A stretch of DNA of 32,000 nucleotides. Source: Candidatus Electronema aureum. Its GTDB lineage: Bacteria > Desulfobacterota > Desulfobulbia > Desulfobulbales > Desulfobulbaceae. Positions 8,504 to 32,000 of the stretch are shown here, in pieces (the stretch's first letter is position 1; every line of letters starts with the position of its first letter). The stretch covers positions 42,625 through 74,624 of the forward strand of contig NQJD01000009.1 of NCBI GenBank assembly GCA_004284765.1, read 5' to 3'. The notes beneath the pieces were generated by a model. That model did no database searches. It was not told where the DNA came from and saw nothing but the letters and a program-made list of their open reading frames with translations. Both the position numbers and the translations under genes were made by a program.

Positions 8504-8799
8504 GGTTCACGCGCGCGCTCTGGCAGCGGCTTATCTTCCCGTTGTTGGCAGGATTTCTCTGGCAGAGTGATGTTTAATTCCAAAATTTCGCAGTCCTGTT
8601 CTCGATCCAAGGTGATGGAAATATCATCTTGGTTAATATCGACATATTTCTTAATCACCGCCAACAGCTCATCTTGGAGCTGCGGCAGAAACGAAGGCCG
8701 GTCCCGCTGAATCTTGTCCCGGGTAATCAGAATGCTCAACCGTTCCTTGGCCACCTCCGCCGATTTGCGGTTGGCGTTGAAATAGTCAAATAAACCCAT
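8500..8799 (-). CDS. minE: cell division topological specificity factor MinE
   Basis: MGLFDYFNANRKSAEVAKERLSILITRD... and ..DISITLDREQDCEILELNITLPE match the MinE pattern. It directly abuts the minD stop. Confidence 0.9.
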   Translation of the reverse strand: MGLFDYFNANRKSAEVAKERLSILITRDKIQRDRPSFLPQLQDELLAVIKKYVDINQDDISITLDREQDCEILELNITLPEKSCQQREDKPLPERAREP

Positions 8800-9618
8800 T
8801 TAATTGCCCCCGAAGAATTTGCTGAAGATACTCTTCTTTTTCGGGTCGATGAAACGCATCTCAATGTCTTCACCGAGAAAGCGGGCCACGCAGTCCTGAT
8901 AGGCCATCCCTGCGTCGCTATTCCGGTTGGCAATCACTGGTACACCTTGGTTAGAGGCAGTCAGCACTGCTTCAGACTCCGGGATGACTCCCAGCAGCGG
9001 AATAGACAGAATTTCCTGAATATCTTTAACCGAGAGCATTTCTCCACGGCTGACCCGCTCCGGCGAATAACGGGTGAGCAGCAGATGCTCTTTGACCGGG
9101 GTGCGGTTTTCCACCACCCGTTTAGTTTTGCTCGCTAAGAGGCCGAGAATGCGGTCAGAATCGCGCACTGAGGAGATTTCTGGATTCGTGACCACGACAG
9201 CTTCATCGGCAAAATACATCGCCATAAACGCACCGTGTTCAATACCAGCTGGGGAATCACAGACGATGTAATCAAAGGTTTCCTTCAGCTCGTTGAGGAC
9301 AGTCTCTACGCCTTCCATCGTCAGCGATTCCTTGTCCTTGGTCTGTGAAGCAGGCAGAATGTAGAGATTTTCCGTGCGCTTGTCGCGGATCAGGGCTTGA
9401 TTCAGCCGAGCTTCTTTATTGATCACGTTGACAAAATCATAGACCACCCGCCGCTCACAACCCATGATCAAGTCTAAATTTCGTAGGCCGACATCGAAAT
9501 CAACTACAGCGGTCTTGTGGCCTTCTAAGGCCAGTCCCATAGCGAACGCCGCACTGGTGGTGGTTTTACCCACGCCGCCCTTGCCAGAAGTGATGACGAT
9601 TATTTTCGTATTGGTCAA
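8800..9618 (-). CDS. minD: septum site-determining ATPase MinD
   Basis: 272 aa. Deviant Walker A ITSGKGGVGKTTTSAA. C-terminal amphipathic tail KKKSIFSKFFGG. Confidence 0.95.
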   Translation of the reverse strand: MTNTKIIVITSGKGGVGKTTTSAAFAMGLALEGHKTAVVDFDVGLRNLDLIMGCERRVVYDFVNVINKEARLNQALIRDKRTENLYILPASQTKDKESLTMEGVETVLNELKETFDYIVCDSPAGIEHGAFMAMYFADEAVVVTNPEISSVRDSDRILGLLASKTKRVVENRTPVKEHLLLTRYSPERVSRGEMLSVKDIQEILSIPLLGVIPESEAVLTASNQGVPVIANRNSDAGMAYQDCVARFLGEDIEMRFIDPKKKSIFSKFFGGN

Positions 9619-26844: not shown

Positions 26845-27819
26845 TTAAAAAGAATAGCCCACGCTCAGGTAACCGGAAGTCTGCTTGCTTTCTGCTTCCA
26901 TATCGATTTTGCCTAATGCCTGATCGCCCAGCATTTGGTATTGCTCGCCTTCAACATCAATCCAAACATGATGGAGGCCAGCCTCCAGATACCACCACGG
27001 AGTAAGGTAATAAATACCTGAGAGATCAATCAGGCAAGCAAAACCGTCTAAATCGCCTTGAGTGGTTTTATTTCTCAGGAGCAGTAGGGTTTCGTCTTCT
27101 GCGCCGATCAGCGGGGCAACCGACAGATTACCGGTTAAACGCAGTTGGGGCGTAAGCTGATATTCCGAGCCAAGCAGGAGATACGGCATGGAATAGGTTA
27201 AATCATAAGTCACTGCGGTTCTATTGCCGCTGCTGTAGTTGTAGCCGGTCAACCCAGAAGGGGAATGCTGTACCGTTGATCCGCCCTTGTATGCAAACTT
27301 CTGATGTTGATAGCCCGCCCCAGCGTATGCGCTCCACAAACCCTGCTGCCAAAAAGTCCATTCTAAATCAATGTCTATGATCAGCGCATCGAGCGAGGAT
27401 ACATCACTGGCAGAATAGACATCCACTCGCTGCGGCATCGAGGAAGTGAGCCAGTCGCGGTCGATGATCGGTTCGTTCGGGTCGCTGAGATTGGTTTTCA
27501 CCGTGCCGTTGACGCGCCACGCTGGGTTAAACGTCCAGCCTGCATCTATCTTGGCTAACCAGATATCGAGCGGCCATTCAAGCGTACTGGCTGGAGAAAG
27601 TTCAGTAGTTCTGGTCCCGTTGGCAAGAACAGCATTGCCGCCGATGGAATACTTCGTGTCGCCGGTCATGGCTTCCAAGCCAAGAGCGAGGTCAAGTTGC
27701 TGGGGTAGGTACGATTGTGTGGCAGACGCAGCTTGGAGTTGCTGTGGCGCACAGAGCAGTCCTACTACTCCAAAACTGAGTCCAAAAATCACCGTGTTGC
27801 CGCTGTTTGATCGTTTCAT
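26845..27819 (-). CDS. omptin-family outer membrane protein (protease-like beta-barrel)
   Basis: 324 aa with a signal peptide ending ..LQA|ASA and a C-terminal ..YLSVGYSF. By eye it aligns to E. coli OmpT as I recall that sequence: IIDRDWLTSSMP vs MVDQDWMDSSNP, AGAGYQHQKFAYKGG vs LMAGYQESRYSFTARGG, and SMPYLLLGSEY vs KMPYIGLTGSY. Confidence 0.65.
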   Translation of the reverse strand: MKRSNSGNTVIFGLSFGVVGLLCAPQQLQAASATQSYLPQQLDLALGLEAMTGDTKYSIGGNAVLANGTRTTELSPASTLEWPLDIWLAKIDAGWTFNPAWRVNGTVKTNLSDPNEPIIDRDWLTSSMPQRVDVYSASDVSSLDALIIDIDLEWTFWQQGLWSAYAGAGYQHQKFAYKGGSTVQHSPSGLTGYNYSSGNRTAVTYDLTYSMPYLLLGSEYQLTPQLRLTGNLSVAPLIGAEDETLLLLRNKTTQGDLDGFACLIDLSGIYYLTPWWYLEAGLHHVWIDVEGEQYQMLGDQALGKIDMEAESKQTSGYLSVGYSF

Positions 27820-28113
27820 CTGCTCCTCCTTGCATCATTGAAGCAGCTGTCCGCATAGAGATGGAGCTGCTGGATTATCAAGCCGTTGAAGATATCTATC
27901 CGTTTTCCTTCAGACAGTAAGAATATCCCCTTGAGGCAATCGTACACCATAGATAGAAATAACTCAACCTTTCGCACGACGGGAACAGAACGACGGCGGA
28001 GTCTGTACGGTGAGGATGCTTTTGAATTGACATGCTTTCCGCAGAATGGTAATCCATGCCAGATGAATCTGGCGCAGACGGAGGAGCGGCGAAAAATTAC
28101 AGGGAGATTGACC

Positions 28114-28743
28114 ATGCGAGTTCTCAAACATCTTTTTGAACAGAACAAAAAATGGGCAGCAGAAATCAAGGAGCAACACCCTGATTTCTTCCTCAAACTT
28201 GCCAAACAACAGAGTCCTGAATATTTATGGATCGGCTGTTCAGATAGCCGAGTGCCAGCAAATCAAATCATAGGGTTGTTGCCGGGAGAAATCTTTGTTC
28301 ATCGCAACATCGCTAATTTAGTTGTGCATACCGATTTGAACTGCCTTTCCGTTATTCAATATGCGGTTGATGTGTTGAAAATAAAACATATCATTGTTTG
28401 TGGACATTACGGCTGTGGCGGGATTAAGGCGGCGTGGGAAAACAAAGAACACGGCCTGATTGACAACTGGTTGCTCAATATTAAGGATATTTATCGCTAT
28501 CACCAAGAAACAATAGATGCACTGAACAACGAAGCAGAAAAAATTAGCCTGCTTTGCGAGTTAAACGTAGCTGAACAAGTTGCCAATGTTTGTCACACCA
28601 CCATTGTGCAGAATGCTTGGAAAAATGGCCAAGAGTTAGCTGTGCATGGCTGGATTTACAGCATCGAAGACGGTATTCTTCGCGATTTGGATGTCTGCGT
28701 CACTAATGCGGATGAATTGCCGCACACGCACAAAATGCAATGA
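28114..28743 (+). CDS. can: beta-class carbonic anhydrase
   Basis: [11 protein letters not shown]...[19 protein letters not shown].....[11 protein letters not shown]...VCGHYGCGG carries the Cys/Asp-Arg/His/Cys zinc-site motifs. ATG 28114 with an AGGGAG SD gives ~209 aa, the usual size. The 5' part of track ORF 27886.. is treated as non-coding. Confidence 0.9.
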
Positions 28744-30236
28744 TTTCAGAACACGAAAATCTTCCTGTCCAAGCTGTTCTTGCCTTCTTTCCTGACGGTC
28801 TTTTAGACAAACTGGCCGCCGTTCGTCGCGAAGTAGGTGGCGAAATTTATCTTGTCGGCGGCGCGGTGCGCGATCTGCTCTTGGGCAAGTCGCCCGGCGA
28901 CCTTGATCTTTTAGTTGCCGGGCAGCCGAAACGCTGGTCCGAGCGACTGCGGCAGCTCACTGGCGGGGCCTGCGTCGAGCTGGGCCGCGAAGAGGAGACC
29001 TTCCGCATTGTCACGCCTCAGAATGTGGTGATTGATTTTTCCAGCTTCCGTTTAGGCGCGGTTTGCATCGAAGAAGACTTGAGCCGCCGCGATTTGACCG
29101 TCAACGCTCTGGCTGCGCCGCTGCATGATTTCCTGTATGACCAAAGCCTTGCCGCTCTGCCGGTGCTTGATCCAACTGGCGGTTTGAACGATCTGGAGCA
29201 AGGCCGCATTCGGGTGGTGGCGGAGCAGAGCCTCATTGATGATCCCTTGCGCTTGCTGCGGGTTTTCCGTTTTGCGGCCTCCCTTGGCTTTGCCATCGAG
29301 CCGGAGACATTGGAACACGTTCGTCAGCATTGCCCGTTGATCAACAAAGTGTCGAAAGAGCGCGTTGCCTATGAATTAGACGCAATCATGGCCACAAACA
29401 GGGCGCATTCCGCCTTTTTTGGTCTGCGCAACTGCGGTTTGCTTTGGGAAATTCTGCCGGAACTGCGGGCCGGAGTCGGTATGGCACAACCTGCCAGCCA
29501 TCATCTCGATGTCTTCGAGCATTGTTTAGAAACTCTGCGTCAGATGGAGTTGATATTAGCTGATTTGAATAGGCATTTTTCCGACCGCAGCCCTGTAATG
29601 GCAGCGTATTTGGCCGAAGTACCGAAACGGACAGTGCAGGTGAAATGGGCGGCTCTGCTTCATGATATCGGCAAGCCTGTTTGTTTTGGCATCAATGCGG
29701 AAAAAGACGGGCGAATCACGTTTCATAATCACGACTTGCGTGGAGCCAGTCTTTTCACTGGAATTTCTCGACAATTGCGCCGCTCAAAGGAAGACACCGA
29801 GGCAACGGCCCGGCTCATTGCGTGGCACATGCGGCCTTTTTTTCTTGCCAATGATCAGCGGCAAGATAAGCTGACTTTGAAAGCCTGTCTGCGTCTGATC
29901 AAGACAGTGGGTGAGCATCTGCCCGGCCTTTTTCTGCTGGCGATGGCTGATGCCTTGGCTGGCAAGGGTGAGGCCAGCCCGGAAGCGATTGAGCAGGAGG
30001 TTTCCGGTCTTTTTACCCTGTTATTTGACATTGAACGCAATCATGTCGCGCCAGTGCAGGCCGCGCCGCCGCTGATCACTGGAAACGATTTGATCACTGA
30101 GCTGAACCTTGTTCCCGGCCCGCTCTTCCGTATCATTTTGGACAAAATCGAAGAGGCGCAGATGGAACGCGCTGTCAGCAGCCGGGAAGAAGCATTGGCG
30201 TTGGCGAAGGCTGTTGCCGCGAAGCCTGCTTGCTGA
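28740..30236 (+). CDS. cca: CCA-adding tRNA nucleotidyltransferase / poly(A) polymerase family protein with HD domain
   Basis: 498 aa. Pol-beta NTase motif [24 protein letters not shown] and [12 protein letters not shown] domain ..HHLDVFEH.. and [12 protein letters not shown] overlap with can. Confidence 0.85.
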
Positions 30237-30349
30237 CTTTGGTGTGGAAAGATCATGCCGAACTCCGCTGGATTTGTTATGATGTCCCATTTCCTGAAAG
30301 CTGGGGGATGAGACAGGAGAGCAGAGAGATAATTTTGAAGGAGCGGAAA

Positions 30350-31207
30350 ATGGGAAGCGATGTAAAAAAAGAAATTAATTCCGCAGGGTATCCAAAATAC
30401 CACAGGCAACGTTTCATCATAACCTTGCTACAGTATTTGAACAGCAGTCTGAGTTGGGAAGAATTTCAAAAAATTCTCTTTTTATCTCAGCAGGAGACTG
30501 AAATTTTTTATTATGATTTTGTTTTATCCAGCAATGAATTTTATTCATTTCAGGCGGTCAGTGATATTGAGACATTGCATCGCTTAGGCTGGATAGACAT
30601 AAAAAACAACAAGATAGTATTGTTATATAAATTGCCATCTGAAAAAGGTCTGTCGCAGGCGGAGACGCAAAAACTTTTTCGTTTTACACGAGAAAAAGAA
30701 AAGAAATACTTTAAAGAGCAGCTTCTTTTTTCAAATCATGCAAAACCGTGCGAAGAAGATTTCCTTTGCGACGAATCTGTCCTATTTACAATAGGATATG
30801 AAGGGATTTCTTTTGAAGAATATATCAACCAGCTCTTGAGGAAAAATGTCCGCCTGCTTTGTGATGTCAGAATGAACCCAATCAGCAGAAAGTTTGGTTT
30901 CTCAAAAGGAATTTTGTCTGAAGTGTTGCCAAAATTTGGAATAAAGTATCTTCATATACCAGAATTAGGAATCATCTCCAGCAGCAGAAAAGAACTTCAT
31001 GCCGCATCTGATTATCAATACCTTTTTGAAAACTACAAAAAAGAATTAAAGAAGAAAAATAAATTTCTATCTATAGTTAGAGATGCTCTTGCAGAATACA
31101 AAAAAATAGCCCTGACATGTTTTGAACATCAGCCGTTATTTTGTCATCGTCACTGCATCAGTGATTATATCCAAAAAGAAAGAAATGTCACTGTGATCCA
31201 TTTATGA
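30350..31207 (+). CDS. DUF488-domain protein with an unrecognised ~145-aa N-terminal domain
   Basis: ATG 30350 with a GAAGGAG SD. The C-terminal half (from nt ~30778) reads LFTIGYEGISFEEYINQLLRKNVRLLCDVRMNPISRKFGFSKGILSEVLPKFGIKYLHIPELG...ALTCFEHQPLFCHRHCISDY, the DUF488 (YeaO-like) pattern. AT-rich. Confidence 0.7.
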   Translation: MGSDVKKEINSAGYPKYHRQRFIITLLQYLNSSLSWEEFQKILFLSQQETEIFYYDFVLSSNEFYSFQAVSDIETLHRLGWIDIKNNKIVLLYKLPSEKGLSQAETQKLFRFTREKEKKYFKEQLLFSNHAKPCEEDFLCDESVLFTIGYEGISFEEYINQLLRKNVRLLCDVRMNPISRKFGFSKGILSEVLPKFGIKYLHIPELGIISSSRKELHAASDYQYLFENYKKELKKKNKFLSIVRDALAEYKKIALTCFEHQPLFCHRHCISDYIQKERNVTVIHL

Positions 31208-31878
31208 AAAGAAAAGTTTTCATCACCGTCAAGACGTATCCAACGTTATCAAAAAAGTATGATGAGCTTGTCTGCACTGCGGGAATCTTGGATGACGGGA
31301 GCTGGGTGAGGATATATCCATTGCCATTCAGAAAACTTGATTACGAAAAAAGGTATAAAAAATATCAGTGGATAGAATTTGAACTTGAGAAAAATACCAG
31401 CGACATGCGGCCTGAAACGTACAGAGTCGTCAACTGCGCAACAATCAAGACAATTGATGATCCTATAGGAACAGAGAATTATTGGCGAAAACGAAAAGAA
31501 ATTATATTTCAGAGGAATAAAATATATAAAAATTTATCAGAGTTGATTGATTTGGCGCATGAGAATAAACTTTCTCTTGCGGTTTTCAAGCCAAAACACC
31601 TGATCTCTTTTCATGTTGAGGCAACTGAACGGGAATGGTCCTCGGATAAACTTGCTCTTTTACAGGGAAAGGTTCAGCAGCTTTCTTTTTTTCAGACGCA
31701 GGAAGAACTGCGGAAAGAATTTTCTGTTGTGGACAAGCTGCCATACAAGTTTTTTTATAAATTCAGCGATGAGGAAGGGAAAGAATCTCGACTGATGATC
31801 GAAGATTGGGAGATTGGCGCACTCTATTGGAATTGCCTCAAAAAAGAGAAAGGAAACGAGCAGGCCGCCCTTGGGTAA
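31204..31878 (+). CDS. hypothetical protein, translationally coupled to the DUF488 gene; probably 3'-truncated by an IS
   Basis: 224 aa. ATGA overlap with the upstream stop. MKRKVFITVKTYPTLSKKYDELVCTAGILDDGSWVRIYPLPFRKL... No family recognised. The stop TAA (31876-31878) lies inside the putative IS1 terminal repeat GGTAAT... Confidence 0.55.
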   Translation: MKRKVFITVKTYPTLSKKYDELVCTAGILDDGSWVRIYPLPFRKLDYEKRYKKYQWIEFELEKNTSDMRPETYRVVNCATIKTIDDPIGTENYWRKRKEIIFQRNKIYKNLSELIDLAHENKLSLAVFKPKHLISFHVEATEREWSSDKLALLQGKVQQLSFFQTQEELRKEFSVVDKLPYKFFYKFSDEEGKESRLMIEDWEIGALYWNCLKKEKGNEQAALG

Positions 31879-32000
31879 TAGAGATCTGTGAGTGATCAAT
31901 GAAATAAAATACAATCGTTGTAGTGATTAATAAATCTCCAAACAGATGCAGTTAAGTTTTCAATGCTTCTCGAAAACGACAATGTCTTCCTGACTAATGC
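31874..32000 (-). mobile_element. end of an IS1-family insertion sequence (transposase C-terminus, partial)
   Basis: Minus-strand translation of 32000..31896 gives ALVRKTLSFSRSIENLTASVWRFINHYNDCILFH*. This parallels the E. coli IS1 InsB C-terminus as I recall it (..[29 protein letters not shown]). The sequence from 31874 starts GGTAAT, like the IS1 right inverted repeat. The exact boundary is uncertain. Confidence 0.65.

Follow-up and report, generated by a model that had tools for sequence, protein, structure and literature searches.

A two-gene cassette matching the PADLOC candidate system PDC-M19, interrupted by an insertion sequence, downstream of cca in Candidatus Electronema aureum

What is the AT-rich gene pair that follows the tRNA-maturation gene cca in the 32,000-nucleotide stretch of Candidatus Electronema aureum DNA analysed here (contig NQJD01000009.1, positions 42,625 to 74,624 of the forward strand; hereafter the window), and is it an accessory conflict system, as an earlier sequence-only reading had proposed? 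The pair consists of gene 1 (30350..31207, plus strand), which appears intact and encodes 285 aa from an ATG, and gene 2 (31204..31878, plus strand), which encodes 224 aa and has its 3′ end cut off. We find that the region carries one copy of the PADLOC candidate PDC-M19, a two-gene cassette that is widespread and moves horizontally, in which gene 1 is the PDC-M19A homologue and gene 2 the PDC-M19B homologue. In the window, gene 2 is split by an insertion sequence (IS).

The assignment to PDC-M19 rests on profile matches of both proteins. Gene 1 matches PDC-M19A over its full length, including the N-terminal domain (PDLC04505, E-value 6.9e-73); a second PDC-M19A model is also found (PDLC04504, E-value 2e-46). 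Gene 2 matches PDC-M19B (PDLC04508, E-value 4.1e-91) at profile positions 3-217 of 269. The two matched genes are adjacent, co-directional and in the order of the candidate system; only gene 2 is incomplete, being interrupted at codon 223. The pairing had been thought absent from the lists of known systems, which is wrong since it is catalogued as PDC-M19; the companion claim, that the pair's function is without any known account, was correct. PDC entries are candidate systems, neither published nor validated (PMC11811056, PMC12988326). Both families are also present in PHROGs, where no function is known for them (gene 1 is phrog_14939, E-value 9.2e-43). In total, 943 homologues of gene 1, mostly of about 298 aa, and 6406 detectable homologues of gene 2, nearly all of about 276 aa, were identified.

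The linkage of the two genes was searched by running profiles made from two halves of gene 1 on 80 loci with gene 2 relatives (51-79% identity, one genome per species). These loci are the closer part of the gene 2 family, the whole of which forms about 2500 clusters at 50% identity. In 78 of the 80, the open reading frame (ORF) just upstream, in the same orientation, contains both the N-terminal domain and DUF488; the other two loci begin at contig edges. The gene-neighbourhood check called for by the sequence-only reading, namely whether gene 2 homologues co-occur with DUF488 genes, thus gave a positive answer in 78/78 testable loci. Moreover, the two genes overlap by 1-4 nt in most loci. Among the closer relatives, the linkage of the two families is essentially obligate. 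Gene 2 homologues with at least 51% identity occur in Thermodesulfobacteriota, Nitrospirota, Planctomycetota, Proteobacteria (Alpha- and Gamma-), Bacteroidota, Cyanobacteria, Deinococcota, Spirochaetes and others, and the GC content of the pair is below that of its flanks in 13/13 genomes checked. The view that the pair is an accessory cassette, moves horizontally and bears a defence-type signature is supported.

The window copy shows the same traits. The ORFs, the ATGA overlap that couples them (31204-31207) and the segment with 16 G+C in 60 positions (31321-31380), all noted in the sequence-only reading, were reproduced from the sequence, and the same two genes are called in the public annotation of the source chromosome. 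GC content is 34.5% in gene 1 and 39.6% in gene 2, as compared to 53.8% for positions 1-30236 and 55% for cca. The drop starts in the spacer that separates the cca stop from the gene 1 start (30237..30349, plus strand, delimited by sequence and composition), in which a scan for a consensus promoter or terminator gave nothing above the shuffled expectation. A ribosome-binding site GGAG (30340-30343, plus strand) stands seven bases before the gene 1 ATG, and the gene 1 reading frame is open from a TTG at 30230. The upstream gene encodes the CCA-adding enzyme, with PolyA_pol head, RNA-binding and HD domains in Pfam.

Gene 2 is split at codon 223 by a 914-bp IS1-family element with an 8-bp target duplication. 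The sequence past the window end was read in chromosome OW818638.1 (assembly GCA_942492785.1; locus L081), which encodes an identical protein. The left copy of the target duplication, CGCCCTTG, is at 31866..31873, and the right copy lies just after the IS, outside the window. The left end of the IS (31874..32000, minus strand, from six-frame translation) extends past the window, the element running from 31874 to about 32787; together with its target duplication it is found at L081 8663-9592. The element has imperfect terminal inverted repeats, and the 3′ end of its insB gene occupies 32000-31896 (minus strand). It was assigned to the IS1 family because of its GGTAAT termini, an insA-like zinc-finger/helix-turn-helix ORF and an insB-like ORF, both read directly from the sequence. 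What we take to be the hallmarks of IS1 elements, small overlapping insA and insB ORFs, GGTAAT-type repeats and an 8-9 bp target duplication, are all present. That the pair borders an IS was therefore true but understated, the IS lying inside gene 2. The description of the pair as IS-flanked was wrong: it is IS-interrupted, with one IS end and no second IS copy in the window.

The consequences for gene 2 can be followed to the residue. Residues 1-222 are native (..GNEQAA), whereas the last two codons and the stop (31876-31878) are supplied by the junction together with the terminus of the IS. The window protein aligns with relatives of 276-297 aa up to residue 222. The displaced 73 codons follow directly after the IS, 0.9 kb downstream and outside the window, and this remnant shares 89% identity with the C-terminal end of a relative that is intact. 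When the IS and one of the two duplication copies are taken out in silico, the frame ..EQAALAKVEEKYFAEF.. is restored, in agreement with the relatives. Apart from this, neither half of gene 2 is damaged, and the insertion therefore looks recent. Judging by the model of a relative that is intact and 95% identical, the second barrel's final two strands are among the parts removed, which makes it very unlikely that the shortened product folds. As gene 2 is interrupted by a single IS1-family copy, the window copy of the pair is very probably dead and non-functional. Gene 1 would survive as an orphan, tolerated without its partner.

What could gene 1 do? DUF488 is a large family without known function, of which E. 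coli YeaO is an example. The AlphaFold model of the gene 1 product (predicted local distance difference test, pLDDT, 87.9) displays, from N- to C-terminus, a helix/hairpin domain, one long helix and a domain of alternating beta and alpha elements. The latter corresponds to the DUF488 domain (30779..31204, plus strand, aa 144-285). Pfam DUF488 (PF04343) matches aa 155-274 with an E-value of 2.4e-24 and 86.7 bits versus a cut-off of 22.2, covering model positions 2-121 of 121; the fusion to a complete DUF488 domain, as the sequence-only reading had it, is thereby borne out. DUF488-N3a (PF22751), the 'active' subclade and a precomputed label borne by most gene 1 homologues, scores 29.2 bits versus a cut-off of 27 and aligns at model positions 56-117 only. 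In addition, the sister family DUF4326 matches the same residues weakly.

This domain keeps a motif formed by Cys265, His266 and Arg267 (CHR motif; codons 31142..31150, plus strand), invariant in 121 aligned sequences. In the model it is positioned between a strand (252-257) and a helix (267-277), a setting comparable to the Cys/Arg loops of phosphatases, and by this analogy it is presumed to be the catalytic site. The Foldseek neighbours of the domain are protein tyrosine phosphatase (PTP)-fold phosphatases, tetrapyrrole-methylase N-terminal domains and a macro domain (DarG), none of them significant; the PTP-fold phosphatases are the best, with a probability of 0.8-0.9 but an E-value above 0.1. 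Burroughs and Aravind reportedly defined, in 2023, a RapZ-C/DUF488/DUF4326 clade and predicted DNA-end processing in conflict systems. DUF4326 has been assigned to the rhodanese-phosphatase superfamily, with terminal phosphates on ribose proposed as substrate and, in viruses, a proposed role in the processing of ADP-ribose derivatives (PMC9503650).

The N-terminal domain of gene 1 (30398..30739, plus strand, aa 17-130) is modelled as helix-helix-hairpin-helix-hairpin followed by a long helix. Its conserved residues are P15, R19, Q20, F44, S66, Q68, A69, D72 and W81. No Pfam or NCBIfam family covers the first ~140 aa, and the PDB chains offered nothing usable for the N-domain profile or for the gene 1 and gene 2 sequences. 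From the model, the domain is probably a winged-helix-like module with a helical linker. The winged-helix signals are weak (SarA, E-value 0.06, and a structural match to the MarR-type MftR); since Pfam scans of 22 N-domain sequences gave scattered chance matches only, the call is made on weak evidence. Of the proposal that this domain is winged-helix or antitoxin-like, the first part keeps these signals, while no search backed the antitoxin label.

For gene 2, the sequence-only reading could name no family. This stands for Pfam and NCBIfam, where none is found, but not for PADLOC and PHROGs. Its fold was taken from the model of the intact 95%-identical relative (P0001, pLDDT 81), which contains two beta-barrel regions with helical inserts. 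Foldseek comparison of this model with the PDB identified Teb1 (E-value 4e-4), CTC1, TEBP-alpha, RPA, POT1, RecO and ribosomal protein S12; among viral models (BFVD), baculovirus LEF-3 (E-value 5e-5) and phage single-strand-binding proteins were found. These OB-fold matches have Foldseek probabilities of 0.98-1.0 with sequence identities of 6-12%. At the level of the model, the intact relative thus resembles a multiple-OB protein of the kind that binds single-stranded DNA and DNA ends. We also considered the Pfam dual OB-containing domain DuOB (PF22557) and rejected it: the window protein does not match, nor does any of 150 family representatives. The Gordonia phage homologue described below alone scores (E-value 0.002), at 18.6 bits versus a cut-off of 27. 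As a side observation, one gene 2-family representative (among P0241-P0389) also carries a Vsr mismatch-endonuclease domain (E-value 5.9e-16), and another has DUF488 in the same polypeptide; these combinations could be genuine fusions or merged gene calls.

The genes around the pair were clustered and named by Pfam, after which an iterative search was seeded with recurrent flanking genes. Of 79 loci, 27 contain restriction-modification components, no more than two genes away from the pair in 25 of them; these are raw counts over loci, several of which share ancestry. Three arrangements occur. In the first, a type III Mod methylase lies upstream and a type III Res helicase-nuclease downstream, both co-directional with the pair; apart from the cable bacteria, the clade nearest to the window copy has this arrangement. 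In the second, found in Bacteroidota, HsdM and HsdS lie upstream and HsdR downstream (type I). In the third, type IIG/ISP enzymes stand beside the pair. In about a third of the genomes, the pair is built into operons of ATP-dependent restriction enzymes, with methylase or specificity genes on one side and the nuclease-translocase gene on the other. Restriction-modification genes are by far the commonest neighbours: the top Pfam families among immediate neighbours are ResIII, N6_N4_Mtase, N6_Mtase, HSDR_N and Eco57I, and the top PADLOC models are MTase_III, REase_III, REase_I and REase_MTase_IIG, with single matches to AbiEi, AbiLi and other PDC entries. Because three different restriction-modification types are involved, these data argue for repeated recruitment of the pair into restriction-modification operons. 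The window and its 8-kb flanks contain no restriction-modification gene. At other loci ordinary genes adjoin, such as those for aminoacyl-tRNA synthetases, polA, prfB and yebC. Adjacency to cca, which the sequence-only reading had treated as typical of conflict systems, is hence not diagnostic, neighbours ranging from restriction-modification genes to aminoacyl-tRNA synthetases, polA and yebC.

The nearest relatives of the pair are in cable bacteria (Desulfobulbaceae). In Candidatus Electrothrix laxa, an intact pair stands a short way downstream of cca; an rlmE-like gene and a gene for a 201-aa PD-(D/E)xK protein precede it, and yebC follows. The setting of the pair in cable bacteria is between cca/rlmE on one side and yebC-ruvC on the other. 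Since related cable bacteria have the intact pair downstream of cca, it is lineage-conserved there and not a strain-specific island. In Candidatus Electrothrix laxa and E. marina (L001 and L002, both at 8544-9149), the gene for the 201-aa protein stops a single base ahead of the gene 1 homologue. This protein matches the PADLOC Cas-associated PD_DExK model (E-value 4.9e-53), has no counterpart in the window, and may be a third component in the Electrothrix lineage.

Phages carry the family as well. A scan of 2.9 million viral contigs identified 11 loci with the pair family, 10 of which have a gene 1-like ORF in the upstream arrangement. The only clear exception to linkage was observed at locus L092 (5902-6792), where no DUF488 gene stands within 6 kb of a gene 2 homologue with 38% identity. 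In temperate Gordonia phages, a full-length gene 2 homologue (28% identity, hhalign E-value 2.8e-47) is encoded in the immunity region; in phage Nymphadora, it is gene 43, situated after the immunity repressor and homologous to PDC-M19B over its full length. Gene 42 of Nymphadora (L083 4822-5415, minus strand) bears the label 'HipA toxin' but matches the DUF488 profile (E-value 2e-26), and the same gene is present in six related records; judged from this match, the HipA label looks wrong. The Gordonia DUF488 gene is convergent with the gene 2 homologue and has no N-domain. The immunity repressor was also considered as a gene 1 homologue, which BLASTP and hhalign ruled out. Taken together, the PADLOC candidate models, the restriction-modification neighbours, the low GC content in 13/13 genomes and the Gordonia phage immunity regions uphold the accessory, defence-type character that had been proposed for the pair.

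On this basis, we think it somewhat more probable than its opposite that the pair is an accessory, probably anti-phage module, inactivated here, in which the OB subunit would bind nucleic acid and the DUF488 enzyme would process ends. According to this model, the OB-fold subunit would recognise single-stranded or broken nucleic acid produced by phage infection or restriction cleavage, and hand it over to the DUF488 enzyme. The latter would change terminal phosphate or sugar chemistry, leaving the invader beyond repair, ligation and replication. The N-terminal domain might tether the enzyme to DNA or to its partner, or repress the operon. The purpose would be anti-phage, possibly through reinforced restriction.

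Several observations weigh against this model. About two thirds of the loci have no restriction-modification gene within 10 kb and have housekeeping neighbours, so the coupling to restriction is not obligatory. The type III loci have homologous Mod and Res genes and may therefore count as one evolutionary event instead of 14. In several cable bacteria species, the pair occupies a similar chromosomal position and looks vertically inherited. As for the proteins, all structural matches of the DUF488 domain have E-values above 0.05 and are not significant, and we know of no enzymatic activity or substrate for DUF488 proteins. The OB matches have low template-modelling scores (TM-scores, 0.24-0.30) and a differing domain arrangement, so that they back the fold class only, namely multiple OB domains. 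Gene 2 conservation is unusually high for a defence gene (64% identity across phyla), and a repair function would fit it too. Finally, a full-text literature search for 'PDC-M19' returned no paper.

A narrower and unlikely version of the anti-phage model makes PDC-M19 a restriction accessory: the dual-OB protein would capture the single-stranded or broken ends that type III, I or IIG enzymes leave on phage DNA, and a Cys-dependent DUF488 enzyme would block them by dephosphorylation, phosphotransfer or capping, which would make the breaks irreparable. If true, this would give the large DUF488 family its first biochemical function. In either case, the catalogued name PDC-M19 becomes a testable model, that of end processing alongside restriction.

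Among the other explanations, the one that survives best, although we consider it improbable, is a toxin-antitoxin or abortive-infection module independent of restriction. A latent toxin that targets nucleic acid would be restrained by its partner and the N-domain would autoregulate the unit, restriction operons serving as a landing site as they do for PrrC in EcoprrI. The tight translational coupling (ATGA here, overlaps of 1-4 nt in most loci) fits this explanation, as does the possible DNA-binding N-domain encoded by the upstream gene of a two-gene unit. The same can be said of the position beside the repressor in temperate-phage immunity regions, the numerous stand-alone loci, and AbiEi and AbiLi among the neighbours. 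However, searches of Pfam, NCBIfam, PADLOC and PHROGs assigned neither protein to any known family of toxins or antitoxins, both proteins are of large size (285 and about 276 aa) and strongly conserved, and the OB-fold architecture is without an evident catalytic site. The window copy adds a further argument: gene 2 is destroyed and gene 1 intact, and gene 1 is therefore not a gene 2-dependent toxin, although the observation is uninformative if gene 2 is the toxin. Thus, while the IS-broken window copy is itself of little biological weight, the interest lying in the family, an apparently harmless gene 1 on its own constrains toxin-antitoxin readings.

Less likely again is a housekeeping or accessory DNA/RNA repair module, in which an end-healing enzyme would work with its own single-strand-binding partner without being specific to phages. 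An OB-fold binder together with a phosphatase-like enzyme is the layout of end-processing repair systems, and conservation across phyla is high. The setting between cca/rlmE and yebC-ruvC in cable bacteria, and beside polA, aminoacyl-tRNA synthetase genes and prfB elsewhere, points the same way. On the other hand, the distribution is patchy and the GC content below that of the flanks; the pair was inserted repeatedly into restriction-modification operons of three types, has copies in phages and viral contigs, and is among the PADLOC candidates derived from defence islands. In addition, its loss through the IS is tolerated in the source genome. The weakest explanation, which we regard as doubtful, is counter-defence cargo of a mobile element or phage, whose DUF488 enzyme would strip a host-imposed modification or signal (e.g. 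ADP-ribose-derived) and so shield the carrier: both families are found in PHROGs and on viral contigs, DUF4326 is proposed to process ADP-ribose derivatives in viruses (PMC9503650) and the macro-domain antitoxin DarG is among the weak structural neighbours, but viral contigs seldom carry the family (11 loci in 2.9 million), most copies lie on chromosomes, within host restriction-modification operons, and the Gordonia copy lies in a lysogeny-expressed immunity region, the usual site of prophage defence and not of lytic counter-defence.

Further features were observed around the pair. The cca 3′ end (window 30115-30205) has a 91-nt copy, 86% identical, on the far side of the pair and the IS (L081 10732-10822, outside the window and about 3.9 kb downstream). 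The reading frame of this copy is still legible, and it may be the distal limit of a segment that was inserted or recombined. Between the two cca 3′-end copies, there is no integrase and only short GC-rich ORF fragments are seen, one of them fibronectin-type-III-repeat-like as judged by eye. Further upstream, a beta-carbonic anhydrase gene (window 27886-28743) has a GC content of 43.7%, below its surroundings. Its mechanical ORF of 285 aa from a TTG is far longer than the annotated product of 209 aa, and the true start is therefore probably internal. An omptin-family outer-membrane protease homologue (window 26845-27819, minus strand; Pfam E-value 6.7e-12) has a signal-peptide-like N-terminus.

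How does the pair compare with known systems? It shares with PDC-M19 the components, their adjacency, orientation and order, and departs from the model in that the window M19B is without about its last 55-70 residues, owing to the IS. The C-terminal 140 aa of gene 1 match the DUF488 family (PF04343) over the full model length and keep the CHR motif; however, gene 1 has an extra N-domain of ~140 aa outside the Pfam models and an obligate OB-fold partner, whereas YeaO-type proteins are stand-alone and single-domain. Teb1, CTC1, TEBP-alpha, POT1, RPA70 and LEF-3 have the fold type of the gene 2 relative's model in common with it, but not the domain arrangement, and nucleic-acid binding by gene 2 is a prediction. 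Like type II toxin-antitoxin systems, the pair is an overlapping two-gene operon whose upstream gene is perhaps DNA-binding; unlike them, it matches no such family, its proteins are three times the usual size and gene 1 is tolerated without gene 2. The closest parallel in genomic position is PrrC, the anticodon nuclease of the type Ic system EcoprrI, a comparison that rests on established knowledge: PrrC likewise lies between the modification/specificity and restriction genes, co-directional with them. In contrast to PrrC and RloC, with which there is no kinship in sequence or fold, the cassette comprises two genes instead of one and occurs with type III, type I or type IIG systems or alone.

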